Under the pieces are notes generated by a model, which made no database searches, was not told the origin of the DNA, and worked only from the letters and a program-made list of their open reading frames with translations. A DNA stretch of 64,000 nucleotides from Kiritimatiellales bacterium (lineage in GTDB: Bacteria > Verrucomicrobiota > Kiritimatiellia > Kiritimatiellales > Tichowtungiaceae). Shown here piece after piece: positions 3,814-60,180 of this stretch (the stretch's first letter is position 1; the number at the start of each line of letters is the position of its first letter). Location of the stretch: positions 98,834 through 162,833 of the forward strand of contig JBBADV010000005.1 of assembly GCA_041656295.1 (NCBI GenBank), read 5' to 3'. Position numbers and translations under genes: made by a program.

Positions 3814-3890
3814 GGGCGTTTAGCTCAGTTGGTTAGAGCGCCTGCTTCACACGCAGGAGGTCACAGATTCGAGTTCTGTAACGCCCACCA
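3814..3890 (+). tRNA. tRNA-Val (anticodon CAC), CCA encoded
   Basis: Cloverleaf read by hand: acceptor GGGCGTT/AACGCCC, anticodon stem CCTGC/GCAGG with loop TTCACAC, T-loop TTCGAGT, 3' ACCA. Confidence 0.9.
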
Positions 3891-13376: not shown

Positions 13377-13691
13377 TAGAGCGTATTCAGAAAAATTATA
13401 GCCACAAAAAACACAAAAAATAAAAATTGATCCGCAGATGACGCAGATAAGCGCAGATGTTTAAACCACGGGATACACAAAACACACGGAAGTTTTGCAG
13501 AAGAGGGATTAGCAGAGCGGCAGAGTAGTAGACGCGGCGCCCTCGCCGCGTTCCGTGTTCAGGGTTTTCTGTGTACAGTTGAGAGTTGAAAAATTCTCAG
13601 TGCGCTCTGCGGTTTATCAATCAGTTCGGTCCATAATTATTTGGTGATTTTTGCGCGTTTTTGCGGCTATACATGAATTTAAAATGCTCTA
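13377..13691 (+). repeat. Modular foldback (MITE-like) element, copy 1
   Basis: Termini TAGAGCGTATTCAGAAAAATTATAGCCACAAAAA and TTTTTGCGGCTATACATGAATTTAAAATGCTCTA form imperfect inverted repeats of about 45 nt. A central perfect palindrome ACGCGGCG-CCCT-CGCCGCGT sits at 13532-13551, about 8 nt right of the geometric centre. Confidence 0.85.
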
Positions 13692-16009: not shown

Positions 16010-16321
16010 GCGGAGAAATTCCATGCCAGAATGAACCTTTCTTCATTCACCGAAAACAAAGGAAAGGAACACCGGCATGGAACAGAACGCGTGTGATACA
16101 AGCCATTTCTGAAACGGTACAGCCTGCGAAGTAGACTCATCGGCTGCATGCGGACTCCAACACCCGGCACAACCGTCGCTACCAGTGGTTCGGGAAAAGA
16201 AAATCTTGGCGTTACTGCCCATCGACTCAGAGCATGCCGGCGGAAAACGTGTGGCGGGTGTGCCATTCCTTTCATCGGAACGCTGCCGGATACACGCAAA
16301 ATTGGCTGCTGCTTGAACGTT

Positions 16322-16668
16322 TAGAGCGTATTCAGAAAAATTTAGCCGCAAAATAAACAAAGGTGTAATGCACCGCAGGCATCCTTACCTGCCTTGGGAA
16401 ATCCGCAGATGACGCAGATGAACGCAAATGTTAAAATCACGATTCGAAACGAAGTGAAGACTTGAAGAGCGGCTTTCTGAAAGAAAGCAGCGAAAGCGAC
16501 AAAGGCTCGCCAAAGGCGGGCGGTGAAAACGGCAAACACACCGAATACACGGATTTTTTTGCAAAAAGGCAATGAAGTGCTGCATGCGTGTTCATGCGTG
16601 GTTTATCAATCATTCGGCCCATAATTATTTTGCGATTTTTGCGGCTTTTTTTAATTTAAAATGCTCTA
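16322..16668 (+). repeat. Modular foldback element, copy 2
   Basis: Same termini as copy 1. The interior is mosaic: it shares the GCAGGCA..CCTGCCTTGGGAAATCCGC module with copy 3 but has a different core. Confidence 0.8.
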
Positions 16669-16741
16669 AGTGTCCGGTTGGAGTTTTTTGATTCATGCTG
16701 CTGCTTTCTATGGAACCGTTCTGCAGCGGTTTCAAAATTTA

Positions 16742-17457
16742 AGGGGCTGTAGTAGATAAGCTTGAATGCTAAGCTTGTCGAATGAAGATAACTCGTTGTA
16801 AGTTATTAAGAAAACAGCAGTTAAGACTGCTCGACTATTTTGTTCTGGAAGTGACAGCCCGATCGGCAGCGGATTTACTGGGAATACAGCCCAACAGTGC
16901 GGCCCTGTTTTACCGCAAACTGCGTGAGGTGATTGCGCATCACCTTGAGCAAAAAGAACATGAAGTGTTCGATGGAGCGGTTGAATTGGATGAGAGTTGT
17001 TTCGGTGGTGTCCGCAAGGGTAAGCGCGGTCGAGGAGCTGCTGGCAAGGTCGCTGTCTTTGGCATCTTAAAACGCGGTGGCAAGGTCTACACCAAGATCG
17101 TGAAGGACACCAGGACGGAAACGCTGATGCCATTGATCTCCAGGAAAACAGCGCCAGACAGCCTGGTGTATACCGATTGTTATCGAAGCTGCAATGCCTT
17201 GGACGTGAGTGATTTTTACCATGAAAGGATCAATCACTCGGCGCTATTTGCAAAGGGCAAGAACCGCATCAATGGCATTGAGAACTTTTGGAATCAGGCC
17301 AAGCGTGTGCTGAGAAAATACAATGGAATTCCGAAAGAGTCGTGCCCGCTATTCCTCAAGGAATGCGAGTTCAGATTCAATTGCGGAAGCCCTAAGCAAC
17401 AATTGAAAACACTTAAGGAGTGGGCTGATATTTAGTGCTTATCTACTACAGCCCCTA
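16742..17457 (+). mobile_element. IS1595-family insertion sequence (copy 1, distinct species)
   Basis: Perfect 20-bp terminal inverted repeats AGGGGCTGTAGTAGATAAGC (16742-16761 and 17437-17456). Flanked by an AATTTAA direct duplication (16736-16742 and 17457-17463). Confidence 0.85.
16782..17435 (+). CDS. IS1595-family (ISXO2-like DDE) transposase
   Basis: 217 aa with motifs ELDESCFGG..KGKRGRGAAGK..VFGILKRGGKVY, YTD and INGIENFW, characteristic of DDE_Tnp_IS1595. Confidence 0.85.
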   Translation: MKITRCKLLRKQQLRLLDYFVLEVTARSAADLLGIQPNSAALFYRKLREVIAHHLEQKEHEVFDGAVELDESCFGGVRKGKRGRGAAGKVAVFGILKRGGKVYTKIVKDTRTETLMPLISRKTAPDSLVYTDCYRSCNALDVSDFYHERINHSALFAKGKNRINGIENFWNQAKRVLRKYNGIPKESCPLFLKECEFRFNCGSPKQQLKTLKEWADI

Positions 17458-19527: not shown

Positions 19528-19654
19528 AACCGCGGATTACGCGGATATAAACGGATGTTTTTAAAATGGCCATAGTTCACAGTTCAGAGTTGGGAAATTC
19601 TCTTTATTTTAATCGTAGTTTATTAATCTGTTTATATCTGTGTTATCCGCGGTT
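19528..19654. repeat. Intergenic foldback: 29-nt inverted arms with a 69-nt core
   Basis: Arms are AACCGCGGATTACGCGGATATAAACGGAT (19528-19556) and ATCTGTTTATATCTGTGTTATCCGCGGTT (19626-19654), matching at 25/29 positions, and 3 of the 4 differences are purine transitions. The core holds CAGTTCAGAGTTGGGAAATTCTC, a word block also present in the foldback elements. Confidence 0.85.
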
Positions 19655-33865: not shown

Positions 33866-33944
33866 GGGTAGGGTGCGCAGTCCCTTGCGCGCCGGAATTT
33901 GAATGTTCTGTAATAGCGGTGCGCAAGGGACTGCGCGCCCTACC
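33866..33944. repeat. REP/BIME-like doublet (two self-palindromic GC-rich units in inverted orientation)
   Basis: GGGTAGGGTGCGCAGTCCCTTGCGCGCC (33866-33893) and GGTGCGCAAGGGACTGCGCGCCCTACC (33918-33944). Each unit contains a GCGCA..TGCGC stem. Confidence 0.8.
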
Positions 33945-33983
33945 GAAACGATAACAAACCACCTTTATTCATAGTTTAATTTT

Positions 33984-34721
33984 GGTTCAAGACAAGTTAA
34001 CTGGGTTGACATAGCCTTAAGATGTTGTCTTGAAATGAGTAATAAATATATTTTTCATTCACGGATTTCGGAGCACGATTTCCGGCGTATTATCCGCTAC
34101 TTTTCGGTGAATATTGAAGCATCAAAGATTGCTATTCTTACCGGGCTGAGTCGTAACACAATCAACCGGATTAGTTCTGCGGTACGCCGGCGGATCGCTG
34201 AATGCTGTGAACTGGACAGTCCGTTTAAATGCGGTGAAGTTGAATTGGATGAAAGCTGTTTCGGTGCCCGGCGTGTCCGAGGAATTCGCGGTCGTGGCGT
34301 AAAAGGAAAAACCATCGTGTTTGGACTGATAAAACGAAGAGACCGAGTCTACACTCAGGTTGTTAAGAACTGCTCTGTAAAGAAGTTACTCCCGATTATA
34401 CAACGGAAAGTGGATACGGAATTGATCGTATATACCGATGGATTTAAAAGTTACGACGGACTGGTGAATTTCGGGTATCGGAAGCATTACAGGATTCATC
34501 ATAGAAACAATGAATTTACTGTGGGACGAAATCATATTAACGGTATTGAAAACTTCTGGAGTATCGCTAAGGTTCGGCTTTCAAAATTCAGAGGAATTCA
34601 CAAATCAACGTTTTATCTCCATCTGAAAGAGTGTGAATTCCGATTTAATCATCGTCACGAAAACCTCTATCAGATACTGTTAAAAATGTTCAGAAAACGA
34701 CCCATTAACTTGTCTTGAACC
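33984..34721 (+). mobile_element. IS1595-family insertion sequence (copy 2, intact)
   Basis: 17-bp perfect terminal inverted repeats GGTTCAAGACAAGTTAA. Flanking 8-mers TTAATTTT and TAAATTTT match at 7/8 positions. Confidence 0.85.
34035..34718 (+). CDS. IS1595-family transposase
   Basis: 227 aa with ELDESCFGARRVRGIRGRG.KGKTIVFGL, YTDGFKSYD and INGIENFWS motifs. Confidence 0.85.
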   Translation: MSNKYIFHSRISEHDFRRIIRYFSVNIEASKIAILTGLSRNTINRISSAVRRRIAECCELDSPFKCGEVELDESCFGARRVRGIRGRGVKGKTIVFGLIKRRDRVYTQVVKNCSVKKLLPIIQRKVDTELIVYTDGFKSYDGLVNFGYRKHYRIHHRNNEFTVGRNHINGIENFWSIAKVRLSKFRGIHKSTFYLHLKECEFRFNHRHENLYQILLKMFRKRPINLS

Positions 34722-34739
34722 TAAATTTTTTATCGAAAT

Positions 34740-35340
34740 CTGTCGCAGAACACCCCGAGGCTTGCCACGGGGATGAATGCGTCCGACAGAGGGGGATGTA
34801 AGGGGGAGAGCGCAACATCCCCCTTTCCCGACAAGCTCCTTGCGGGATTTTGGTCAGACGATAAACTGTTGTAATGACATTAAAATGAACGAGTCTATAA
34901 TACAACCTATCATCCGGTGCGGTGTCCGAAATATCGTAAAGATATTTTTCGGGAAGAGTGGCTGAGGGAACGTGCGGAACAGTTATTTCACGCGGCGGCA
35001 GAAGACGATGAAATTGAAATCATCGAGATAGAAGTGTCGCAGGATCATGCCCATTTGATGGTTAGTGTTGCTTCCAAACGTGGAATAGGAGAGGTTGTTC
35101 GAATATTCAAAAGTGTTGTCGCGAGAGAACTGTTCCGTGAGTTCCCGAGTTTAAAAAAACGACTTTGGAGCGGGGAGCTTTGGGAAGATGGATATTTTGC
35201 ACGGACGGTTGGAGACCGGATGACGAGTGAGGTGATTCAGAAATACATTCAGCACCACCGTGAGGAAAAACAAGGAGCTACGTAGCTTGGTCTAAAGCTG
35301 CGTTAAAGATGCCCCGGGGCTTGCCACGGGGAGGTTCACT
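34740..35340 (+). mobile_element. IS200-like element (tnpA only)
   Basis: Directly repeated subterminal imperfect hairpins CCCCGAGGCTTGCCACGGGG (34753-34772) and CCCCGGGGCTTGCCACGGGG (35312-35331). An additional 9-bp stem GGGGGATGT/ACATCCCCC lies upstream of tnpA. Confidence 0.7.
34917..35285 (+). CDS. tnpA: IS200/IS605-family Y1 (HUH) transposase TnpA with no canonical start codon in frame (probably defective)
   Basis: Has CPKYRK, an HUH motif (DHAHLMV), RLWSGELWEDGYFARTVG and a C-terminal Tyr (QKYIQHH). The in-frame upstream codons read *NERVYNTTYHPVRCPKYR, while the only ATG (34885) is in another frame. Confidence 0.7.
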   Translation: MRCPKYRKDIFREEWLRERAEQLFHAAAEDDEIEIIEIEVSQDHAHLMVSVASKRGIGEVVRIFKSVVARELFREFPSLKKRLWSGELWEDGYFARTVGDRMTSEVIQKYIQHHREEKQGAT

Positions 35341-35592: not shown

Positions 35593-35665
<73 letters not shown>

Positions 35666-36300: not shown

Positions 36301-36366
36301 ACATTTTCTGATTTTAAATAGTCTGTCTGTTTATTCCTATTTTTAAATTTGAAGGAGAATCGCATT

Positions 36367-37353
36367 ATGGCAGGCATTGAGGTGATTAACCAGAAAGTAC
36401 GTGAAGAAAGCACATTTATTCCGGCACTCAAAGCGGAAATCGGCAAAGTTGTTGTCGGACAGAACGATCTGATTGATCGCCTGATCATCGGCATGCTTTC
36501 CAACGGCCATGTTCTGCTCGAGGGCGTACCGGGGCTGGCAAAAACATTAACAGTAAAAACACTTGCCGCCACGCTGAAAACAACCTTTCACCGGATCCAA
36601 TTCACGCCGGATCTGCTGCCCGCCGACTTAATCGGCACACTGATTTACAATCCGAAAGACGCGGAATTTTTCACCAAAAAAGGCCCGGTGTTTGCGAATA
36701 TTATTCTTGCCGACGAAATCAACCGCGCACCGGCGAAAGTCCAGAGTGCTCTGCTCGAAGCGATGCAGGAACATCAGATCACCATCGGTGATGAAACATT
36801 CCGCCTGCCTGAACCGTTTCTCGTTATGGCCACCGAAAACCCGATCGAACAGGAAGGAACCTATCCGCTGCCTGAAGCACAGGTCGACCGTTTTATGCTC
36901 AAGTTGAAAGTCGGTTATCCGTCGCGTGACGAAGAGCGCCGGATCCTCGACCGCATGGCGCGCACCGCAACTGACATTACCGTAAATCCGGTGATTGATC
37001 CTGACTCGATTCTGCGTGCGCGCCGCACCGTCGACGAAATTTACATGGATGACAAAATCAAAGAGTACATCCTCAGCATCGTCTTTGCCACGCGCGAGCC
37101 GGAAGCCTGCGGACTCGACATCAAAGAATATCTGCGTTACGGCGCCAGTCCGCGCGCCACCATCGCGCTCACCATCGGCGCCAAAGCCTTCGCCTTTCTG
37201 CAGGGCCGCGGCTACGTCACGCCGCAGGATGTCAAATCCATCGCGCCGGATATTCTGCGCCATCGTATCATCGTTTCTTATGAAGCCGAGGCCGAAGAAC
37301 TGACCTCCGAAAACCTCATTGATACAATTCTGAGCGAAATTCCGGTGCCGTAA
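36367..37353 (+). CDS. MoxR-family AAA+ ATPase
   Basis: ATG at 36367 with AAGGAG 9 nt upstream. Has Walker A LEGVPGLAKT, Walker B ILADEINRA and ATENPIEQEGTYPLPEAQ.DRF. Confidence 0.9.
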   Translation: MAGIEVINQKVREESTFIPALKAEIGKVVVGQNDLIDRLIIGMLSNGHVLLEGVPGLAKTLTVKTLAATLKTTFHRIQFTPDLLPADLIGTLIYNPKDAEFFTKKGPVFANIILADEINRAPAKVQSALLEAMQEHQITIGDETFRLPEPFLVMATENPIEQEGTYPLPEAQVDRFMLKLKVGYPSRDEERRILDRMARTATDITVNPVIDPDSILRARRTVDEIYMDDKIKEYILSIVFATREPEACGLDIKEYLRYGASPRATIALTIGAKAFAFLQGRGYVTPQDVKSIAPDILRHRIIVSYEAEAEELTSENLIDTILSEIPVP

Positions 37354-37365
37354 CATTGCCGAACT

Positions 37366-37385
37366 CCGATTTCCGATTGCCGATT
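37366..37385 (+). repeat. Left inverted arm of the four-helix-bundle cassette
   Basis: The reverse complement of CCGATTTCCGATTGCCGATT matches 37762-37781 at 19/20 positions. Confidence 0.85.
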
Positions 37386-37400
37386 GGAAGTGTTGTGACC

Positions 37401-37754
37401 ATGAATCAGAATGACCTTAAAAAACGAACGAAACAGTTTGCTTTGCGAATCTTGAAGCTGACTGCGGCGCTTCCGCGTTCACCGGAAGCGATTGTACTTC
37501 GCAATCAACTGGTACGTTCGGGAACATCCGTTGGTGCAAATTACAGAGCGGTATGTCGTTCCCGTTCAACCGCTGAATTCATTTCAAAACTCGGTGTCGT
37601 AATTGAGGAAGCGGATGAGTCCTGTTTCTGGATGGAACTAATGATTGAAAGCGGAATGCTGTCGAAAGAAAAAACTAGTGATTTGCTGAGCGAAGCCAAT
37701 GAAATTACGGCGATCATGACCGCCGCGCGAAAAACCGCACAGGACAGAGTCTGA
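37401..37754 (+). CDS. Four-helix-bundle protein of the 23S rRNA intervening-sequence protein family (TIGR02436/PF05635-like, Avd-related)
   Basis: 117 aa with FALRILKL...LP......L.NQLVRSGTSVGANYRA..R.RS..EFI.KL....EEADES.FWMEL, the family signature as I remember it. Confidence 0.8.
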   Translation: MNQNDLKKRTKQFALRILKLTAALPRSPEAIVLRNQLVRSGTSVGANYRAVCRSRSTAEFISKLGVVIEEADESCFWMELMIESGMLSKEKTSDLLSEANEITAIMTAARKTAQDRV

Positions 37755-38677
37755 TGGAAAGAATCGGAAATCGGAAATCGGAAATCGGAAATTCGCCGGC
37801 TTCACATCGCGAATTGCTGAAAAAGATACGGCGCATTGAGATCCGAACCCGCCGCGCGGTGAACGATGTGTTCGCCGGACGCTATCACAGCGTATTCAAA
37901 GGTCGCGGCATGGAGTTTGATGAAGTTCGCGAATATTGCCCCGGCGATGACATCCGATCAATCGACTGGAACGTCACCGCCCGCACCGGCGTGCCGCATG
38001 TTAAAAAATTTGTCGAAGAGCGTGAAATGACAGTCATGCTGATGGTTGATATCAGCGCATCGAACGATTTCGGGAGTACTGCACAACTGAAACGTGATCT
38101 TGCCGCTGAAACTGCTGCCATGCTTGCGTTTTCGGCGACGCGCAACAACGACCGCATTGGATTGATTTTATTTTCCGACCGCGTCGAAAAATTTATTCCG
38201 GCGCGCAAAGGCACGCCGCACGTTTTGCGAATCATTCGCGAAGTGCTTGATTACGAACCGCAGAATGCCGGCACCGATGCGCGGCCGGCGCTCGACTTTT
38301 TAAACCTGACCAATACGCGCAAAACCGTAGCATTTTTGATCAGCGATTTTATCTTCCCGCAATCCTGTGAACGCGAACTGAAAATCACTGCGCGGCATCA
38401 CGACCTGATTGCCGTCTCGATCGCCGACCGGCACGAACGCGCGTGGCCGCGCACCGGAATTGTTGTATGGAAAAATCCGGAGACCGGAGAACATATTACG
38501 GTGGATACGTCCGGCGCCGCCGTCCGGCGCGCACTGCTGCTCGCGCAGGAAGAGCGGAGTGAAACACTGTATCGCGAACTGCGGCGCGCCGGCATGGATG
38601 TGGTTGAACTTTTTACCGGTGAACCGTACGACCGGGCCTTCATGAAATTTTTCAGGCAAAGGAGTGCGCGCAGATGA
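37754..38677 (+). CDS. DUF58 (vWA-like) protein, MoxR partner
   Basis: Motifs RTRRAVNDVFAGRYHSVFKGRGMEFDEVREYCPGDDIRSIDWNVTAR and MLMVDISASN. The ATG overlaps the stop of the upstream ORF (TGATG). Confidence 0.85.
   Translation: MERIGNRKSEIGNSPASHRELLKKIRRIEIRTRRAVNDVFAGRYHSVFKGRGMEFDEVREYCPGDDIRSIDWNVTARTGVPHVKKFVEEREMTVMLMVDISASNDFGSTAQLKRDLAAETAAMLAFSATRNNDRIGLILFSDRVEKFIPARKGTPHVLRIIREVLDYEPQNAGTDARPALDFLNLTNTRKTVAFLISDFIFPQSCERELKITARHHDLIAVSIADRHERAWPRTGIVVWKNPETGEHITVDTSGAAVRRALLLAQEERSETLYRELRRAGMDVVELFTGEPYDRAFMKFFRQRSARR
37762..37792 (+). repeat. Tandem heptanucleotide array (AATCGGA)x4, right arm of the cassette, lying inside the DUF58 coding sequence
   Basis: The array reads directly as AATCGGAAATCGGAAATCGGAAATCGGAAAT. 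It encodes IGNRKSEIGNS at the DUF58 N-terminus. Confidence 0.9.
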
Positions 38678-38689
38678 ATTGTTTTATTC

Positions 38690-38720
38690 ACCGCGAAAGA
38701 ACACAAAAAACGCAAAGGAG
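38690..38720 (+). repeat. Left inverted arm of the GxxExxY cassette
   Basis: ACCGCGAAAGAACACAAAAAACGCAAAGGAG aligns without gaps to the reverse complement of 39142-39176. There are 7 differences in 31 positions, all purine transitions. Confidence 0.8.
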
Positions 38721-38728
38721 TGTGATCA

Positions 38729-39178
38729 ATGAACACGACTGACATTATGGCGTTATGTGATCAGATCAGAGAAACCGCTTATGCAATTCATCAATATCAC
38801 GGAAACGGATATTTAGAAAAAGTGTATGAAAATTCACTGGCTCATCGGCTTAGAAAACTTGGTCTTGATGTTAAACAGCAGCACCGGCTGATAATTTATG
38901 ATGAAGACGGTTCAGAAATCGGAGAATATTTTGCTGATTTGTTTGTCGAGAGTGTATTAATTGTTGAGTTAAAAGCCTGCCGGATAACAACCGATGAACA
39001 CAAGGCACAGCTGTTAAATTATCTCAAAGGCGCCCGGATTGCGCATGGCCTTTTGATTAACTTTGGCTCCTTTAAATTTTCCATTCAAAAATTTGTAAAA
39101 AGTGATCCGTGCCCATCGTCCATTTTTAAAAATTTTCTCATTCCCTTTTTTGCGTTCCTTGCGCTCCTTCGCGGTTAA
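38729..39178 (+). CDS. GxxExxY protein (TIGR04256-like, PD-(D/E)XK nuclease-fold family PF13366-like)
   Basis: Motifs are HGNGYLEKVYENSLAHRL...G, a hairpin region ending DLFVESVLIVELKA, and QLLNYLK......GLLINFG. The last ~25 codons are encoded by the right repeat arm. Confidence 0.8.
   Translation: MNTTDIMALCDQIRETAYAIHQYHGNGYLEKVYENSLAHRLRKLGLDVKQQHRLIIYDEDGSEIGEYFADLFVESVLIVELKACRITTDEHKAQLLNYLKGARIAHGLLINFGSFKFSIQKFVKSDPCPSSIFKNFLIPFFAFLALLRG
39142..39176 (+). repeat. Right inverted arm of the GxxExxY cassette
   Basis: TCCCTTTTTTGCGTTCCTTGCGCTCCTTCGCGGTT; see the left arm at 38690-38720. Confidence 0.8.
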
Positions 39179-39181
39179 TGA

Positions 39182-40150
39182 ATGAAACAGTTATTCCCAT
39201 ATTTTATTTTGCTCCTACTCACCGGATGCCGTGAGCAGGCACCGGAATTGCTGCTGGAGGGTTTTACGGCGGATGCAACCATTTCGGCCAACGCCATTCA
39301 CGCCGGCGACAATGTGGTGCTGACGTTTTCCGCGGTTCATCCGGAGGGCAGCGTTGTCCGTTTCCCGGCGCCGGGGAAAAACCGGGAAATTGTTGTACGC
39401 AACCGCGCAACGTCAACGGGAAGCATCACCGCCGGGGTTTTAAAAACGGAAGAGCAGATTCAGTTTACATCATTCCGTTTCGGCAGCTTCCCGGTATTTT
39501 CCGGCGCGGCGGTTTGTGTTTTCCCGGACGGCACTGAAACGCGGCTGGAGCTTCCGACGCCGGTGCTGCATGTTGAAAAACTAATAGACCCCGGTGATAC
39601 AAAACTCTCCGATATTCGCGGCATTGTTAAACCGCCCCTGCGGCTTTCATGGAAACTGCTGGTGCTGCTGTTCGTTGGTATCACCGCCGTCGCCGCCGGA
39701 ATCATTACACTGTTTCTGCTGCGCAAACCGCAACCCGCTTCCCGCGCTCCCGCCCCGCCGCCGCATACGATTGCGCGTCAGGCGCTGATTTTATTGAAGG
39801 CAAAAGAGTGGATTCCGGATCCGTTTTTCACTGAACTTTCATTCATCCTGAGAACATATTTGGAAAACCGTTTCAGCATTCACGCACCGGAATCAACCAC
39901 CGAAGAGCTCACGCGTATGATGTCGTATGATCACCGCTTAAACCTGCGTGAACAGCAAATACTGCGCGATTTTATGGTCCGGGCCGACCTTGTTAAATTC
40001 GCCGCCGCCGGCGCTGAACAAAACGTAATGCAAACCGCGTTCAGTACCGTTGAAAGTTTTGTTGAACAAACAAAAGAAGAAGATTTTTTAACCGCGGATA
40101 ACGCGGATGAAAAAATAAATCGGAAATCGGAAATCGGAAATCAAAAATGA
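39182..40150 (+). CDS. Lipoprotein with a central TM helix and DUF4381-like module (Bat operon member)
   Basis: Lipobox LLLTGC. A TM segment LLVLLFVGITAVAAGIITLFLL is followed by PH.IARQAL..L, as in DUF4381. The C-terminal ADNADEKINRKSEIGNQK is encoded by repeat words. Confidence 0.65.
   Translation: MKQLFPYFILLLLTGCREQAPELLLEGFTADATISANAIHAGDNVVLTFSAVHPEGSVVRFPAPGKNREIVVRNRATSTGSITAGVLKTEEQIQFTSFRFGSFPVFSGAAVCVFPDGTETRLELPTPVLHVEKLIDPGDTKLSDIRGIVKPPLRLSWKLLVLLFVGITAVAAGIITLFLLRKPQPASRAPAPPPHTIARQALILLKAKEWIPDPFFTELSFILRTYLENRFSIHAPESTTEELTRMMSYDHRLNLREQQILRDFMVRADLVKFAAAGAEQNVMQTAFSTVESFVEQTKEEDFLTADNADEKINRKSEIGNQK
40091..40142 (+). repeat. Word blocks ACCGCGGATAACGCGGAT plus (AATCGGA)x3 inside the 3' end of the DUF4381-like gene
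   Basis: Direct-repeat partner of 37762-37792, and the same CGCGGAT word as at 19528-19556. Confidence 0.85.
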
Positions 40151-42944: not shown

Positions 42945-43459
42945 AACGTAAAATTTCCATTTTAATACTGGCGGCCGCCTTGAATTCCGGCGCAGAAACC
43001 GCGGACGAGTGGTTCAATAAAACTGCGCGCGAATATATCTACAGCCACACCGCAGAAGCGAGTAATCTGGTTTATCAGGCACTGGCAGATTATCCCGGTG
43101 ATGAAAAGCTGTTAAAATTAAAAGAGCTGATCGAACAGCAGCAGGAACAGCAACAGCAAAATCAGGACCAGCAGAATAACGAGAATCAAAACGATCAGTC
43201 AGATTCGTCCGATCGGACTGATCAGCAACAAGATCAATCAGGTCAAGAAGAACAGCAGAAAGAAGAAAACTCTCAGGAACATGAAGAGCCGGCGGAACAG
43301 AATCCGGCAAAAGAGCAACCGGCAGAACGTCAGCCCGGTGAAATGAGTGAAGAGGAAGCGATGCAGCTCCTCGACGCGATGAAACAGAATGAACAGGACC
43401 GGCGCGCCAATCTGCACCCTTATCTCGGACCGCCGGTGCGTGTTGAAAAGGATTGGTGA
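42941..43459 (+). CDS. BatC-like secreted Gln/Glu-rich protein
   Basis: Signal peptide, one TPR-like segment, a long Q/E/N/D low-complexity tract and a C-terminal ...EEAMQLLDAMKQNE......KDW tail, as in BatC-type proteins. Confidence 0.6.
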   Translation: MKRKISILILAAALNSGAETADEWFNKTAREYIYSHTAEASNLVYQALADYPGDEKLLKLKELIEQQQEQQQQNQDQQNNENQNDQSDSSDRTDQQQDQSGQEEQQKEENSQEHEEPAEQNPAKEQPAERQPGEMSEEEAMQLLDAMKQNEQDRRANLHPYLGPPVRVEKDW

Positions 43460-43463
43460 GGAG

Positions 43464-45215
43464 ATGCTATTGAAGAGTTACGACTGCCGCTTGCTGGTTT
43501 TAATTTCTGCCCTGGCGCTCAATGCGTTCTGCTTTGACGCGGTGATGAAAATTCAACCGCCGGTGATCGGGTTGAATGAGCAGGCGCAACTGACGATTGA
43601 AGTCCGCCAGGCAAATAACGCTCAGCCGCCGGCGATCCCGGATGTTCCGGGATTAAAGATTAATTTCAGCGGACAGCAGACGCACATGAACTGGATCAAC
43701 GGGAAATCAGACAATTTTGTTTCGTTCAACTACACAGTTTATCCGCAACAAACCGGCGCGTTTCAGATCGGCCCGTTCGAGTATAAAACCGGACGGGAAA
43801 GTAAAATGCTGCAAGGTGAAATACGCGTGGTCAGTAATGCCGGCAGCGCACAGCAAAGCGAAAGCTGGAGCGATTATCTTTTTGCGCGCATCTCCGTCGA
43901 CCGTGCGACGGCATACATCCAGGAGCCGTATGAACTGACGCTTGAAATTTATACGCGTCCCGAAATTCAGCTCACCGGAAATATTAATCTGGCTGGCGAT
44001 CACATCGCTGGACTGGCGTGGCAGCAGGCCGGCGAAACCAGAGAAGTGTTTCACAATACCGTTTTTAACGTTCGGCGGTTTCGCGCCGGTACGCGCGCGA
44101 TCAGTTCCGGTACAATTCAATATGCGCCGGTGATTACGGTTCAGGTGGCGGTGCAAAATCAGAACCGCCGGCAGAACCGTGATCCGTTCGCCGGATTTTT
44201 TTCTGATCCGTTTTTCCACGGCACTGAAACGCGGCCGGTTGACATTCCGGCGGAACCGGCGGTGATTGAAATCAAACCGCTGCCGGCCGACCGTCCCGAC
44301 GGCTTTACCGGCGGCGTCGGACAGTTTGTATTTCAGACCGACGCCCAGCCGCGTGAAGTGCATCCCGGTGATCCGGTTACACTGACGATGAAAATCACGG
44401 GACGCGGAAATTTTGACCGCATTACTGCGCCGGCGCTGCCCGCCGAAGCACCGTTTCGCATGTACGGCGAACCCTCTAAAAAACAGGATGAAACCGGCGT
44501 TCTGTTTGAACAGGTCATTTCGCCGCGCGATGCAAATGTTACTGAAATTCCGGCGCTTACCTTTTCATTTTTCGACACGCAAACGGGCGAATATACCGTG
44601 CTTCACAGCGCACCGATCCCGCTCACGGTAAACGCAAGCGAAAATTCCACCGCGCAGCTTTTCGCCACAAAAGAAATCATCATCCAGCCGGCACCGGATA
44701 CGCCGTTTGCAACGGAAAGTGATTTGCAAAAAATTGAAGCGTTTGTCACGAAACTGTGGAACACGGTCCGTCCGTGGCTGTGGACACTTCCGGCGGCGGC
44801 CGGGCTGTGGCTGATTCTTTTCGTCGCGCGCAAAATTTATTTCCACCGCAAAAAAGATATCGCGCGCGCGCGCCGGCAGAAAGCGCCGAAAGCGGCGCGG
44901 CGCGCACTGCGCGCGGCTGACTACGCGCGGCGGCGCAACGACAGCAAAGCATTTTATGATTCGCTGTGGAACGCCCTCGCCGATTATTTCGGCAACCGTT
45001 TGAATCTGCCGCCGGGCGATGTTACTGCCGATATTGTACTGCGCTCGCTCGAACAGGAAAATTTCAGTGCAGAATCTGTTGCAGAACTGCGGATAATTTT
45101 TGACAGGGTAGAGATCAGCCGTTATGGAATCGACGCCGCTAAAACCCCGGAGGAGATGAAAGCGGTACAACGGTCCCTTGAACAGATTTTAAAACACTGT
45201 GAAAAAAGGTTATGA
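43464..45215 (+). CDS. batD: BatD (oxygen-tolerance) protein
   Basis: ORF trimmed to MLLKSYDCRLL (signal). Has repeated beta-rich BatD modules (F.IGPFEY; G.IQYAPV), a C-terminal TM helix and a basic/helical tail. Confidence 0.75.
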   Translation: MLLKSYDCRLLVLISALALNAFCFDAVMKIQPPVIGLNEQAQLTIEVRQANNAQPPAIPDVPGLKINFSGQQTHMNWINGKSDNFVSFNYTVYPQQTGAFQIGPFEYKTGRESKMLQGEIRVVSNAGSAQQSESWSDYLFARISVDRATAYIQEPYELTLEIYTRPEIQLTGNINLAGDHIAGLAWQQAGETREVFHNTVFNVRRFRAGTRAISSGTIQYAPVITVQVAVQNQNRRQNRDPFAGFFSDPFFHGTETRPVDIPAEPAVIEIKPLPADRPDGFTGGVGQFVFQTDAQPREVHPGDPVTLTMKITGRGNFDRITAPALPAEAPFRMYGEPSKKQDETGVLFEQVISPRDANVTEIPALTFSFFDTQTGEYTVLHSAPIPLTVNASENSTAQLFATKEIIIQPAPDTPFATESDLQKIEAFVTKLWNTVRPWLWTLPAAAGLWLILFVARKIYFHRKKDIARARRQKAPKAARRALRAADYARRRNDSKAFYDSLWNALADYFGNRLNLPPGDVTADIVLRSLEQENFSAESVAELRIIFDRVEISRYGIDAAKTPEEMKAVQRSLEQILKHCEKRL

Positions 45216-46924: not shown

Positions 46925-47827
46925 ATGAAATACCGGCCAAAACATATTGCTGAATATATCGCAGTGCGGGCAGCGCTGGCGGTGATCAATATCTTGCCAT
47001 TGCGCGCGGCGCTGGCATTGGGCTGGCTGGCAAGCGTACTCTTTTTTTATGTTTTCCGGTTCCGTACCGCTAAAGCAGTGGCACGGCTGGAAGAGGTTTT
47101 CGGCGATCGTTTTTCGCCGCGTGAACGCCGGCGGATTGCGCGGCTCTCGTTCCGCAATCTCTGTTTTAACGCCGTTGAATCGGCGCGGTTTTATAAATTA
47201 ACACCCAAAAAATTAAAACGCATGCCGTTCTATCAAAGCATCGAAGACTTTCACCGGGAGCATAAAAACAGCGGCCCGCTCATTCTGGTTACGGCGCACA
47301 TGGGAAATTGGGATCTTGCCGGAGTCGGATGCAGACTGGCCGGTATGCCGATTTTTTCCATTGCGCGCCGGCAGAAGAATCCGCTGACGGATAAGCTGCT
47401 GAATAACATGCGCAATGCCACCGGCATGGAGGTGATTCTGAATGATTCGCGTGTGCTCCAGAATGTGGTACGCAAACTGAAAGCCGGCGGCGTGCTGGCG
47501 ATTCTGCCGGATGTCCGCTCACAAACCGAGGCATTGACAATTGATTTCCTCGGCGGCAAAGCCAACCTCGGCGCCGGTGCGGCGCTGTTTGCACAACTGG
47601 CCAACTGCCCGGTTTATACAGCGATTCTCATCCGTCATGGCTGGACAAGACATGAAGCCAAAGTATTCGATCCGATCACTCCCGATCCCGCGCTTGACCG
47701 CCATGCAGACCGGCAGCGCATTATGCAGACTGTAATGACCCATATTACCGAAGAGGTTTTTAAACACCCTGAGCAGTATTTCTGGTTTAACAAGCGCTGG
47801 GTAATGGATCCGTTTACGAAAAAATAA
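46925..47827 (+). CDS. Lipid A biosynthesis (LpxL/HtrB-like) lysophospholipid acyltransferase
   Basis: N-terminal TM helix and an H-x4-D-type motif region (TAHMGNWDL). Has the typical C-terminal PEQYFWFNKRW. Confidence 0.75.
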   Translation: MKYRPKHIAEYIAVRAALAVINILPLRAALALGWLASVLFFYVFRFRTAKAVARLEEVFGDRFSPRERRRIARLSFRNLCFNAVESARFYKLTPKKLKRMPFYQSIEDFHREHKNSGPLILVTAHMGNWDLAGVGCRLAGMPIFSIARRQKNPLTDKLLNNMRNATGMEVILNDSRVLQNVVRKLKAGGVLAILPDVRSQTEALTIDFLGGKANLGAGAALFAQLANCPVYTAILIRHGWTRHEAKVFDPITPDPALDRHADRQRIMQTVMTHITEEVFKHPEQYFWFNKRWVMDPFTKK

Positions 47828-48565
47828 GGTTCAAGACAAGTTAATGGGACGCTTTCTGAACATTTTTAACAGTATCTGATAGAGGTCTTCGTGATGATGA
47901 TTCAATCGGAATTCACACTCTTTCAGATGGAGATAAAACGTTGATTTGTGAATCCCTCTGAATTTTGAAAGCCGGACCTTAGCAAGACTCCAGAAGTTTT
48001 CAATACCGTTGATATGATTGCGTCCGGCAGCAAATTCATTCTCCCCATGATGAATCCTGTAATGCTTCCGGTAACCGAAATTTACCAGGCCATCGTAACT
48101 TTTAAATCCATCGGTATATACGATCGATTCTGTATCAACTTTCTGTTGTATAATAGGAAGTAACTCCTTTACAGAACAGTTTTTAACAACCTGAGTGCAG
48201 ACCCGGTCTTTTCGTTTGATCAATCCAAACACAATGGTTTTTCCTTTTGCGCCACGACCGCGAATTCCTCGTACACGCCGGGCACCGAAACAGCTTTCAT
48301 CCAATTCGAATTCACCGCATTTAAAGGGCTTTCCAGCTCACCGCATTCAGCGACCCGCTGGCGTACCGCAGAAATAATCCGGTTGATTATGTTGCGACTC
48401 AACCCGGTAAGAACGGCCATCTTGGATGCTTCAATATCCACCGAGAAGCAGCGGATAATCCGCCGGAAATCGTGCTCCGAAATCCGTGAATGGAAAATAT
48501 ATTTATTACTCATTTCAAGACAACATCTTAAGGGCTATATCAACCCTGTTAACCTGTCTTGAACC
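47828..48565 (-). mobile_element. IS1595-family insertion sequence (copy 3, same species as copy 2, defective)
   Basis: Terminal inverted repeats GGTTCAAGACAAGTTAA and TTAACCTGTCTTGAACC (1 mismatch). The left end starts 1 nt after the acyltransferase stop codon. Confidence 0.85.
47831..48513 (-). pseudogene. IS1595-family transposase, frameshifted
   Basis: Split into ORFs 48220..48513 and 47831..48304. Alignment by eye to copy 2 shows a 1-nt deletion in the AGTCCGTTTAAATG segment (here AGCCCTTTAAATG). Confidence 0.8.
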
Positions 48566-48672
48566 TTTTTATTTTCCGGGTTAACTTCCATAAAATATCC
48601 CATAATCCGGTCAAAAAGAAAGCCGATCGAAAGTCATCAATCGGCAACCGGCTGAAATGCACCGGGCTCCGC

Positions 48673-49037
48673 TAGAGCATTTTAAATTAATGTATAGCCG
48701 CAAAAATGCGCAAAAATCGCAAAATAATTATGGGCCGAATGATTGATAAACCGCAGAGCGCACTGAGAACTTTTCAACTCTCAACTGTAAACTGAAAACC
48801 CTGAACACGGAACGCGGCGAGGGCGCCGCGTCTACTATACTCTGCCTCTCTGCTAATCCCTAATGCCTGATGCTTGCTGCACAACTTCCGTGTGTGTTGT
48901 GTATCCCGTGGTTTAAATATCTGCGTTCATCTACGTTATCCGCGGATTTCCCAAGGCAGGCAAAGGTGCCTGCGATACATTACACTTTTGTGTGTTTTTG
49001 TGTTTTTTGTGGCTATAGTTTTTCTTAATACGCTCTA
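48673..49037 (-). repeat. Modular foldback element, copy 3 (reverse orientation)
   Basis: The reverse complement aligns with copy 1 over the termini and core, including ACGCGGCG-CCCT-CGCCGCGT. It carries the extra GCAGGCA-CCTT-TGCCTGC module shared with copy 2. Confidence 0.85.
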
Positions 49038-54327: not shown

Positions 54328-54398
54328 TTGCCCGACTAGGACTTGAACCTAGACGCCAAGAATCAAAATCTTGTGTGCTACCATTACACTATCGGGCA
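54328..54398 (-). tRNA. tRNA-Gln (anticodon UUG), CCA not encoded
   Basis: Acceptor TGCCCGA/TCGGGCA, anticodon stem CAAGA/TCTTG with loop TTTTGAT, and T-arm CTAGG-TTCAAGT-CCTAG. Confidence 0.85.
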
Positions 54399-59530: not shown

Positions 59531-60180
59531 TTACGGCAGAAACGGCGGTATTCCGGCTTTAACGGCTGCGCGACAGCGGCTGATTTTCACAGCGCTTTCC
59601 CGACACAATCCTGCATCTGAGGCGCATAGATAATTCAATCCTGTGCGTGATGCAAGAAATAGTTCAGAGTTTTTCGATGCGACGCAACTGCTTATAGACC
59701 GGAGCTTAATCAGATACTCCGCCAGATGCTGATTGATAAACTCGCTACCGTTGTCCGAGTCCGCCCAGGCAGCGGGAACGGCTGCTTTTCCCATATCCTT
59801 TATCTGCGCCATCACCGCCAGTGCAGTCTGGCTCCAAACAGCCCCGCCGCATCATTCACTCGCAGATCAAAGCTGTTTTTTGCACTCCTCTCCCTCAGGG
59901 TTCCGTGCCGCCGTTCATAATGCAGCAGCCAGAGCGCGGTCGCCTGCTTCAGGCGTCTTAACACAGCTGATCCGTGACCATCCACAGCGCCGTCAACGCC
60001 GTCAAGAACTCCGGCAAAGAATACACTGAGCTTTTTCTATATCGCCGGAGCGGTTCTGTTAAGCCGCTTGCTGGCATATTTACATTCATAGTTGCACACC
60101 GCACAGACTTCATCCATCAGGCGGGGCCGGTTTATAGCGTCGGCACTGAATGTTCAGATACTGCGCTTGAGTCGGTGTCT
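59531..60180 (-). pseudogene. Degenerate DDE (rve-type) transposase/integrase remnant
   Basis: ORF 59531..59815 contains WADSDNGSEFINQHLAEYL, an rve core DNGSEF motif. Upstream minus-strand frames are broken by stops. The extent is approximate. Confidence 0.4.

Follow-up and report, generated by a model that had tools for sequence, protein, structure and literature searches.

We describe two hairpin-bracketed cassettes within the 5' half of the Bat (aerotolerance) operon of a Kiritimatiellales bacterium, on the forward strand of a 64,000-nt stretch of contig JBBADV010000005.1 (assembly GCA_041656295.1; this whole stretch is called the window hereafter). One of them carries an open reading frame (ORF) for a four-helix-bundle (FHB) protein of the S23p family, known from the intervening sequences (IVSs) of 23S rRNA genes, and stands between moxR and the DUF58 gene. 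The other carries an ORF for a GxxExxY protein and stands between the DUF58 gene and the following gene, which codes for a transmembrane (TM) protein. Both are co-oriented with the operon and are built in the same order: 5' arm, Shine-Dalgarno sequence, ORF, 3' arm. We estimate at roughly 0.58 the probability that they represent two families of promoterless, IVS-like cassettes residing in the transcribed operon spacers of mRNA. As far as its sequence goes, the FHB cassette resembles an ORF-bearing IVS in all features except its mRNA host.

The four-helix-bundle cassette

An earlier note on this DNA had assigned the 117-aa ORF to the 23S-IVS/four-helix-bundle family, and the profile hidden Markov models (HMMs) accept this assignment: PF05635 is matched with E=4e-18 and 65.9 bits (cut-off 33.8), and TIGR02436 with E=6e-25 and 87.6 bits (cut-off 24). 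Among the structures of the PDB, the closest solved relative of the protein is 2RLD (E=2e-19), which comprises five chains.

The arms of the cassette (coordinates in Table 1) are 31 nt long and 87% complementary; the shorter pair first proposed, 37366-37385 against 37762-37781, is indeed complementary at 19 of 20 positions. The 5' arm begins 2 nt past the moxR stop codon and is made of about 4.6 imperfect heptamers (ATTGCCG/AACTCCG/ATTTCCG/ATTGCCG/ATT). The 3' arm is (AATCGGA)4 plus AAT and lies within the host gene, where it encodes DUF58 residues 3-13 (IGNRKSEIGN). When the whole cassette was folded as RNA, it was closed by its arms in both the minimum free energy (MFE) and the centroid structures. 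The arm duplex has an energy of -49.1 kcal/mol, to be compared with a mean of -25.4 and a best value of -40.0 over 500 shuffles, and it also lies beyond every shuffle in the orthologous loci L003, L004, L012 and L013 (L-numbers designate loci from other genomes, and W the locus of the window). Among all inverted repeats of the window spaced by at most 800 nt, the FHB arms rank second, the other top pairs being the ends of insertion sequences (ISs) and palindromes. Chance arms were thus rejected on the basis of the shuffles, the window-wide ranking and the conservation of the arms in orthologous cassettes.

The stop codon of the FHB gene and the ATG of DUF58 overlap (TGATG at 37752-37756), as had been read previously. 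Such an ATGA/TGATG overlap was found at the FHB stop in all the FHB-containing Bat loci examined (W, L003, L004, L012, L013 and L164), and 12 further FHB loci have an ATGA overlap. Compared with orthologous cassettes, the FHB gene has dN/dS values of 0.06-0.15 where dS is defined. A Logan metagenome assembly of the same organism is interrupted precisely at the 3' arm of the FHB cassette, and this arm may therefore be repeated elsewhere in the genome.

A solo array of the FHB type, (AATCGGA)3 plus AATCAAA, was observed at 40118-40145, where it encodes the C-terminus NRKSEIGNQK of the gene preceding batA. The same array is located at this junction with batA in two divergent genomes, L019 (7877-7911) and L163 (4408-4435), and is absent from L178 and from the FHB-less strain L166. 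It may have been left by a cassette since lost or have been inserted independently.

The GxxExxY cassette

The 149-aa ORF belongs to the GxxExxY (PD-(D/E)XK-like) family, as proposed earlier, with matches to PF13366 (E=1e-30, 107 bits, cut-off 22) and TIGR04256 (E=9e-33, 113 bits, cut-off 35). Its nuclease domain spans residues 9-123, and translation of the 3' arm yields the remaining tail, residues 124-149 (...FFAFLALLRG). Over 43 homologues, residues G27, Y33, E80 and K82 never vary, and conservation of E30 and D70 is at least 90%. The AlphaFold2 (AF2) model, with a mean predicted local confidence (pLDDT) of 87, displays a minimal PD-(D/E)XK fold followed by a tail helix of low confidence. 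Searching the PDB with this model, the best hits were nucleases of the Cas4, AdnAB and lambda-exonuclease types, with marginal E-values of about 1e-3, while the sequence search of the PDB returned no relative. No relative could be confirmed in viral contigs.

The arms of this second cassette are 34 nt long and 79% complementary. The inverted arms placed earlier at 38690-38720 and 39142-39176 were recovered with the limits given in Table 1. They form the closing stem of the cassette RNA in both MFE and centroid folds, and their duplex energy of -42.0 kcal/mol exceeds that of 500 shuffles (mean -20.7, best -36.1); it lies beyond every shuffle in W and in L013. The arms of both cassettes therefore pair better than the best of their shuffled controls, in agreement with the earlier note. 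The 5' arm, CACCGCGAAAGAACACAAAAAACGCAA, is followed by the Shine-Dalgarno sequence AAGGAG and differs by 4 mismatches from the consensus AACCGCGAAAGAACGCAAGGAACGCAA. The 3' arm is TTGCGTTCCTTGCGCTCCTTCGCGGTTAA, and its terminal TAA is the stop codon of the ORF. This TAA (39176-39178) had been noticed to lie 3 nt from the next ATG (39182), and the junction does read TAA-tga-ATG at 39176-39184.

The same architecture was found throughout the family. A terminal inverted repeat of about 30 nt is conserved (TTAACCGCGAAAGAACGCAAGGAACGCAA, or TTAACCGCGAAAG... in short), and 11 GxxExxY cassettes have arms of the form 5'-(T)TAACCGCGAAAGAACGCAAGGAACGCAA...TTGCGTTCCTTGCGTTCTTTCGCGGTTAA-3' with TTAA at both ends. 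Most of the 120 closest GxxExxY homologues end with the tail ...FAFLAFFRG or a near variant, the terminal TAA of the repeat serving as stop codon, and N-termini such as NRERTQGTQK correspond to the 5' arm translated from upstream mis-starts. The 5' arm is non-coding and departs from the consensus by 0-5 mismatches of 27 in lineages where the synonymous sites of the adjacent ORF are saturated, which indicates a constraint on the nucleic acid. In the literature searched, no paper describes arms for GxxExxY genes; this terminal-repeat architecture of GxxExxY nuclease genes is previously undescribed.

Turnover among related Bat operons

The closest relatives are Kiritimatiellales, Pontiellaceae and Tichowtungia metagenome-assembled genomes (MAGs). 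DUF58 directly follows moxR in most of the 80 Bat loci from other genomes, so that the gene order considered canonical by the earlier note is the rule. An FHB gene is present at the moxR-DUF58 junction of L003, L004, L012, L013, L083, L085, L163-L165, L167-L169 and L178 and is missing from L005-L011, L014-L019, L166, L174 and L175. On a neighbour-joining tree built from MoxR plus DUF58, its distribution is patchy, with the sister pairs L003/L011, L004/L005 and L013/L014 in opposite states. The GxxExxY gene is found at the junction between DUF58 and the TM-protein gene in W, L013, L163, L174, L175 and L178. L007 has it at the junction between the TM-protein gene and batA, where Pontiella desulfatans (L174) carries its second copy; the two P. 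desulfatans copies, in one operon, are only 63% identical. Outside Bat operons, it was detected between ArsR and MMPL genes in Tichowtungia aerotolerans, between CheB/R and PAS-kinase genes in a Desulfobacteraceae MAG, and between DivIC and PfkB genes. Consistent with the earlier view of the two ORFs as insertions, related Bat operons do not all have them: sister lineages and a near-isogenic strain differ.

The exchange could be followed most closely between L164, which contains the FHB gene, and L166, which lacks it and has instead an empty hairpin of the GxxExxY type. Their flanks are 97-98% identical and their GxxExxY proteins are identical, and the replaced block reaches about 15 nt into the 3' end of moxR and about 35 nt into the 5' end of DUF58, with mostly synonymous differences. 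Similarly, DUF58 codon 19 depends on the cassette: the motif is HRELL, with an Arg codon CGY (CGC in the window), in all 10 distinct FHB-containing loci and HKELL, with AAA or AAG, in all 16 loci devoid of FHB, while the remainder of DUF58 follows the host clade. As the change from AAA to CGC requires three substitutions, the FHB-containing junction segment has a single origin and was moved or replaced across lineages by recombination. These observations imply that the FHB cassette is exchanged as a DNA unit together with a few flanking codons, through allele replacement by recombination. Both homing-like gene conversion and plain homologous recombination could account for the short replaced tracts.

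Both cassette proteins show dN values of 0.10-0.25 with dS above 1 or saturated, and dN/dS does not exceed 0.15 where it is defined. This strong purifying selection indicates working genes and not decaying remnants. For the FHB protein, comparison with the host tree is a noisy criterion to separate vertical inheritance from transfer, as the protein has only 117 aa and its dS is saturated.

Other ORFs were seen at the moxR-DUF58 junction in distant phyla. In L025 (2677-3186), an ORF of 150-170 aa is weakly FHB-like (hhalign 76%). The ORF of L020 (5594-5953) was considered as a distant FHB, which proved unsupported; it is a helical ORF without assignment. In L033 (1093-2115), a 341-aa ORF looks by eye like an IS/integrase-type transposase.

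The four-helix-bundle architecture in other bacteria

Metagenomes were scanned using a five-sequence FHB alignment as query, which returned 80 loci with 54-73% identity. The median z-score of the flank duplex was -2.4 in 76 metagenomic FHB loci and -0.1 in 162 control ORFs (Mann-Whitney p=3e-9), and z-scores below -3 were obtained for 35 of the 76 FHB loci as against 7 of the 162 controls. Among the top-scoring controls are a second FHB gene (L144) and genes immediately upstream of FHB cassettes (L119 and L114). The latter two are host genes with strongly complementary flanks, a nuoE-like gene (L119 838-1314, z=-8.6) and a purN-like gene (L114 1763-2368, z=-6.1), and their flanks suggest extra solo arms one junction further upstream.

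Among periods of 4 to 10, period 7 alone is enriched in the FHB flanks. The repeated unit has the consensus GATTNNN on the 5' side (41 of 57 runs) and AATCNNN on the 3' side (30 of 36 runs), with a median of about 4.6-4.9 units per run and a median paired length of 31 nt. The NNN triplet varies from locus to locus (GCC, TTC, TAG, GAA, TTA, GCG and others) and agrees between the two arms of a given locus. The 5' and 3' heptamers are thus reverse-complementary within loci, with a mean distance of 0.77 against 2.31 after permutation, and none of 2000 permutations reached the observed value. The cassettes are tightly packed, the median distances being 43 nt from the upstream stop codon to the FHB start and 20 nt from the FHB stop to the next start. 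According to crude gene calls, 28 loci have the FHB gene in sense orientation between two genes of the same strand. Intergenic heptamer arrays have been described in Beggiatoaceae, cyanobacteria and Bacteroidetes, with no link made to FHB genes (PMC4679880), and in the literature searched no paper ties heptamer-repeat inverted arms to FHB genes outside rRNA.

The same arms flank genes annotated as four helix bundle protein on plasmids of Gloeocapsa, Nostoc, Planktothrix and Chlorohelix. On the plasmids of Gloeocapsa (L180, NC_019759) and Chlorohelix (L184, CP128402), which belong to two phyla, the FHB cassette is located between DUF1156 and Swt1-family HEPN genes. In Planktothrix (L181), it is located between DISARM drmD and an MmeI-type enzyme gene, with z=-10 and flipped arms. 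FHB cassettes seem to be frequent within defence operons. The cassette families were also found in nuo, pur, DISARM, DUF1156-HEPN, MMPL and chemotaxis contexts.

Hairpins without ORF

Junctions without ORFs bear short hairpins, and both types of cassette have ORF-less versions. Hairpins with GxxExxY arms occur in L005, L013, L015, L016, L018, L166 and L174, and GATT-core heptamer hairpins with a loop of about 35 nt in L015 (9946-10035) and L019 (9898-10009). As in terminal-inverted-repeat transposons, the terminal inverted repeats are therefore common to ORF-bearing and ORF-less copies, for GxxExxY and, in L015 and L019, for the FHB type. The empty hairpin of L016, in which a cassette's Shine-Dalgarno sequence, ATG and 3' tail are kept (MVSFAFFALFCGQ), looks like an internal-deletion derivative. 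Other hairpin families also occupy ORF-less junctions, with TTACGNA, TGACCTT or CGTGAAA heptamers or with GGGCGACATGCGTCGCCC.

Solo arrays (GAAATTT)n and (GATATTC)n, with no partner arm nearby, were observed as the first codons of the TM-protein gene in L004 and L008-L011, which lack GxxExxY.

Other features of the window

Table 1. Features of the Bat operon region and related repeat of the window
Feature	Position	Strand	Support
moxR (AAA_3 ATPase), upstream host gene	36349..37353	+	PF07726 E=4.5e-65; PF17863 (AAA_lid_2)
FHB cassette, 5' arm	37355..37385	+	inverted-repeat search; Tandem Repeats Finder (TRF), period 7; paired in MFE and centroid folds
FHB (S23p / 23S_rRNA_IVP) ORF, 117 aa, in the loop	37401..37754	+	PF05635, TIGR02436
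TGATG, FHB stop overlapping DUF58 start	37752..37756	+	sequence
DUF58/VWA host gene	37754..38677	+	PF01882 E=2e-74
FHB cassette, 3' arm	37762..37792	+	inverted-repeat search; TRF
GxxExxY cassette, 5' arm	38683..38716	+	inverted-repeat search; family consensus
GxxExxY / PDDEXK_3 ORF, 149 aa	38729..39178	+	PF13366, TIGR04256
GxxExxY cassette, 3' arm	39149..39182	+	inverted-repeat search; family consensus
TM-protein host gene, DUF4381 position	39182..40150	+	Pfam: no match
Solo FHB-type 3' array	40118..40145	+	repeat search; TRF
batA, batB	from 40147	+	Pfam / gene calls
batD	43389-45215	+	Pfam / gene calls
ORF-less hairpin, termini AACCGCGG...CCGCGGTT resembling GxxExxY arms	19528..19654	.	window inverted-repeat scan

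The number of promoter-like and terminator-like sites within the cassettes was not in excess over shuffled sequences, and promoters or terminators of their own were rejected on this ground. The Rfam scan gave no family reaching the gathering threshold at the arms and no rRNA within the window. Neither cassette protein was matched by PADLOC, so that membership of a defence system was rejected.

Several repeats of other kinds were recorded. Three ISs of the IS1595/ISXO2 type (about 715-755 bp, with terminal inverted repeats of 20-26 nt) are located at 16742-17456, 33978-34727 and 47819-48574, two of them having the end GGTTCAAGACAAGTTAA in common. An IS200-like Y1 transposase ORF at 34917-35285 (PF01797 E=2e-31) is not linked to the cassette arms, and a palindrome with 33-nt arms (GGTAGGGTGCGCAGTCCCTTGCGCGCC...) lies about 1 kb upstream of it, at 33867-33944. 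An ORF-less composite repeat of about 350 nt, with arms of about 9-nt period (AGCCGCAAAA..., CCGCAGATGACGCAGATGAACGCA...), is present in both orientations at 13380-13500, 16320-16670 and 48690-49030. The window also contains an adenosylcobalamin (AdoCbl-II) cobalamin riboswitch at 59538-59618 on the minus strand and tRNAs at 3814-3887, 35593-35665 and 54328-54398.

Proposed mechanism

In the polycistronic transcript, the arms would form an imperfect stem of about 30 bp around a loop, about 400 nt long, that contains the ORF, as folding and covariation suggest, and the ORF would be translated from its own Shine-Dalgarno sequence within the loop. In the FHB cassette, the ribosome would reach the stop codon overlapping the DUF58 ATG, melt the stem and pass on, leaving the operon functional. 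In the GxxExxY cassette, it would read the 3' arm as a C-terminal tail and stop at the TAA of the arm, 3 nt before the next start. By analogy with the IVSs of Coxiella and Leptospira, the stem is a potential substrate of RNase III, whose cleavage would uncouple the upstream and downstream mRNA. At the DNA level, exchange involves the whole unit and a few flanking codons, and the alternative alleles of a junction are ORF-less hairpins of the same or of another arm family. The proteins, a pentameric FHB toroid and the GxxExxY nuclease, would act on the nucleic acid of their own element and may aid its maintenance or spread.

The reading of the cassettes as IVS-like elements, put forward in the earlier note, stands as regards their anatomy, their kinship with IVSs, their turnover and their coupling to the operon. 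Active invasion of spacers, also proposed there, may have taken place; what is seen is the replacement of alleles with short flanking tracts. RNA processing is an unlikely reason why the FHB cassette can be tolerated, as a cut in its stem would sever the DUF58 start codon (37754) from the rest of that ORF. The cassette would rather be tolerated because its reading frame is coupled to DUF58 by the stop/start overlap.

Weighing of the alternatives

A number of points speak against our reading of the cassettes as IVS-like elements of mRNA. As an RNase III cut would remove the DUF58 start, cleavage cannot be constitutive here and would at most be partial or serve regulation; that the cassettes are co-transcribed, that the stem forms in vivo and that RNase III cleaves it are themselves steps that we infer. 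The mismatches in the arms do not have the bias of an RNA stem: over 15 GxxExxY elements they are almost all transitions, with 30 A.C against 16 G.U on the sense strand, and the FHB arms have 26 A.C against 21 G.U on the same strand. Given such spectra, the target of selection could just as well be a DNA hairpin or the other strand; for GxxExxY, the A.C excess may come from constraint on the coding of the 3' arm or from pairing of the other strand. According to the same crude gene calls as above, 7 FHB cassettes are antisense to both neighbours. Each cassette ORF has a single copy within the 64-kb window, no recombinase or transposase domain was detected in either ORF, and no clear target-site duplication could be made out for GxxExxY, whose filled and empty junctions share only a start-codon-like ATGA/ATG context (with TTAA in the flanks). 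The exchanges could be ordinary homologous recombination and not mobility driven by the element. Finally, strong purifying selection agrees with a role useful to the host no less than with a selfish one, and the label selfish is uncertain.

A different reading takes the hairpins as the primary objects, used by the host at all junctions of this operon as mRNA-stability or processing stem-loops like repetitive extragenic palindromic (REP) or enterobacterial repetitive intergenic consensus (ERIC) sequences, with the ORFs as passengers in their loops and turnover by ordinary homologous recombination. Nearly all ORF-less Kiritimatiellales Bat junctions still hold a hairpin of one of several unrelated arm families, the window and related loci contain many further hairpin repeats without ORF, and both the breakpoints of allele replacement, which fall in conserved flanking codons, and the purifying selection on the two proteins agree with this reading. 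Yet each ORF family is bound to its own arm type across phyla, which is not expected of a random passenger; the GxxExxY ORF spans the whole 3' arm and stops at the TAA of the arm in nearly all close homologues; and the L016 hairpin, in keeping Shine-Dalgarno sequence, ATG and tail, points to the loss of an ORF from a cassette and not to its gain by a hairpin. We regard this alternative as unlikely, while giving it real weight. A proposal that the GxxExxY unit is a DNA-level mobile or homing element is more doubtful. Here the nuclease would cut ORF-less hairpins or cruciforms containing its repeat, the ORF would enter them through repair templated by a filled copy, the ORF-less copies would be empty sites or resemble miniature inverted-repeat transposable elements (MITEs), and FHB would behave analogously through recognition of its arms. 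It would account for the conserved terminal inverted repeat of about 30 nt with TTAA at both ends, for a non-coding 5' arm maintained despite saturated synonymous sites, and for the intact D-ExK and GxxExxY residues in a predicted PD-(D/E)XK fold. It would likewise account for ORF-less copies with GxxExxY arms at other junctions, for the same subfamily in unrelated operons of different genomes, for two copies in one P. desulfatans operon, and for the co-conversion of flanking codons with the FHB allele. On the other side, no near-identical copies were seen at different sites of one genome, the Pontiella copies being as divergent as stated above, and a target-site duplication is not definable. 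A single-domain nuclease of 120 aa is moreover small for a transposase, FHB has no nuclease domain, and neither a PADLOC match nor a solved structure related by sequence supports such a function.

The view that both ORFs encode fixed accessory subunits that have long belonged to the Bat/MoxR system, with incidental arms, is contradicted by the comparative data and is very improbable. Their occurrence at the same junctions in several Kiritimatiellales lineages and the purifying selection on both would suit it, but most Bat operons lack them, among these the operons of sister lineages and of a near-isogenic strain, the same cassette families are inserted in the nuo, pur, DISARM, DUF1156-HEPN, MMPL and chemotaxis contexts, and the arms are highly non-random. 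Returning to the reading of the cassettes as IVS-like elements, a broader and rather unlikely extension of it, offered as speculation, would recognise two widespread hairpin-element families whose autonomous proteins are FHB and GxxExxY, each protein reading its own arms: the FHB pentamer about five GATTNNN heptamers, and GxxExxY its terminal repeat of about 30 nt. Both would spread into transcribed spacers by hairpin-targeted cleavage and gene conversion, the 23S IVS would be an rRNA-resident special case, and the scattered intergenic heptamer arrays (PMC4679880) would be footprints.

Significance

The nature of rRNA IVSs and the role of their S23p ORF have been a question since the early 1990s, which now becomes testable. 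An S23p ORF within a co-varying heptamer stem is common in mRNA operons of Kiritimatiellota, Cyanobacteriota, Chloroflexota, Bacteroidota and many metagenomic lineages, and IVSs are therefore not a peculiarity of rRNA. Experimental material is at hand with the cultured carriers Pontiella desulfatans and Tichowtungia aerotolerans, natural pairs of filled and empty alleles, and the covariation of the arms. For GxxExxY, a large family with no assigned function, a first anatomical context is provided, consisting of a terminal repeat, a reading frame ending in the repeat and ORF-less derivatives. The arms also account for odd terminal peptides in annotated proteins (IGNRKSEIGN, NRERTQGTQK, FAFLAFFRG) and for assembly breaks.

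Comparison with known systems

The likeness of this stem-plus-ORF architecture to the IVSs of 23S rRNA, pointed out in the earlier note, is supported by the IVS of Coxiella burnetii, whose stem also comes with an S23p ORF and heptamers (PMC4990558). That IVS has 428 nt, is inserted in 23S helix 45 and has its S23p ORF in the loop between inverted repeats that form a stem; upstream of the ORF lie GACAGAT heptamers in tandem, whose copy number varies between strains, and RNase III cuts at the first repeat (PMC4990558). The ORF is reported as decaying and untranslated, and the Xanthomonas S23p protein is cited as a homopentameric toroid (PMC4990558). The FHB cassette and the 23S IVSs thus share a PF05635 ORF in sense orientation in the loop of an inverted-repeat stem, stem heptamers (GACAGAT in Coxiella, GATTNNN here), a size of about 430-450 nt, and a sporadic presence among strains at a conserved site with ORF-less versions. 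They differ in the host, which is here a protein-coding operon, between moxR and DUF58, instead of a 23S or 16S rRNA gene (helix 9, 25 or 45), and in the junction, the FHB cassette being joined to the downstream gene by a stop/start overlap and having its 3' arm translated in the host protein. The present ORF is preceded in most relatives by a good Shine-Dalgarno sequence and evolves under purifying selection, whereas that of Coxiella is reported as decaying. RNase III excises IVSs from the precursor without religation, whereas here a cut would be expected to harm the downstream gene.

Avd of diversity-generating retroelements (DGRs) has a homologous four-helix-bundle fold and forms a pentameric toroid (PF05635 and PF22296 are related). 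However, the window protein matches PF05635 and not PF22296, and neither a reverse transcriptase nor a template/variable repeat is adjacent to it. Like integron cassettes with their attC sites, the present cassettes are promoterless single-ORF units that depend on host transcription and contain an imperfect inverted repeat. Unlike them, they have arms on both sides of the ORF and not one 3' attC, have no adjacent integrase or attI, and are single and scattered in ordinary operons.

Among dispersed repeats, REP doublets (REPINs) with their REP-associated tyrosine transposases (RAYTs) also combine a protein gene within inverted short repeats with many ORF-less hairpins at transcribed intergenic sites. 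The enclosed proteins are here an FHB protein and a PD-(D/E)XK nuclease in place of a Y1 transposase, and the place of one fixed palindrome is taken, in the FHB arms, by arrays of heptamers in which one triplet varies. ERIC sequences, also called intergenic repeat units (IRUs), and Correia elements (Neisseria miniature insertion sequences, NEMIS) are imperfect palindromes in transcribed intercistronic regions, co-transcribed with operons, and their RNA stems are cleavable by RNases. These elements are without ORF, whereas the hairpin families described here have ORF-bearing members which read into their arms.

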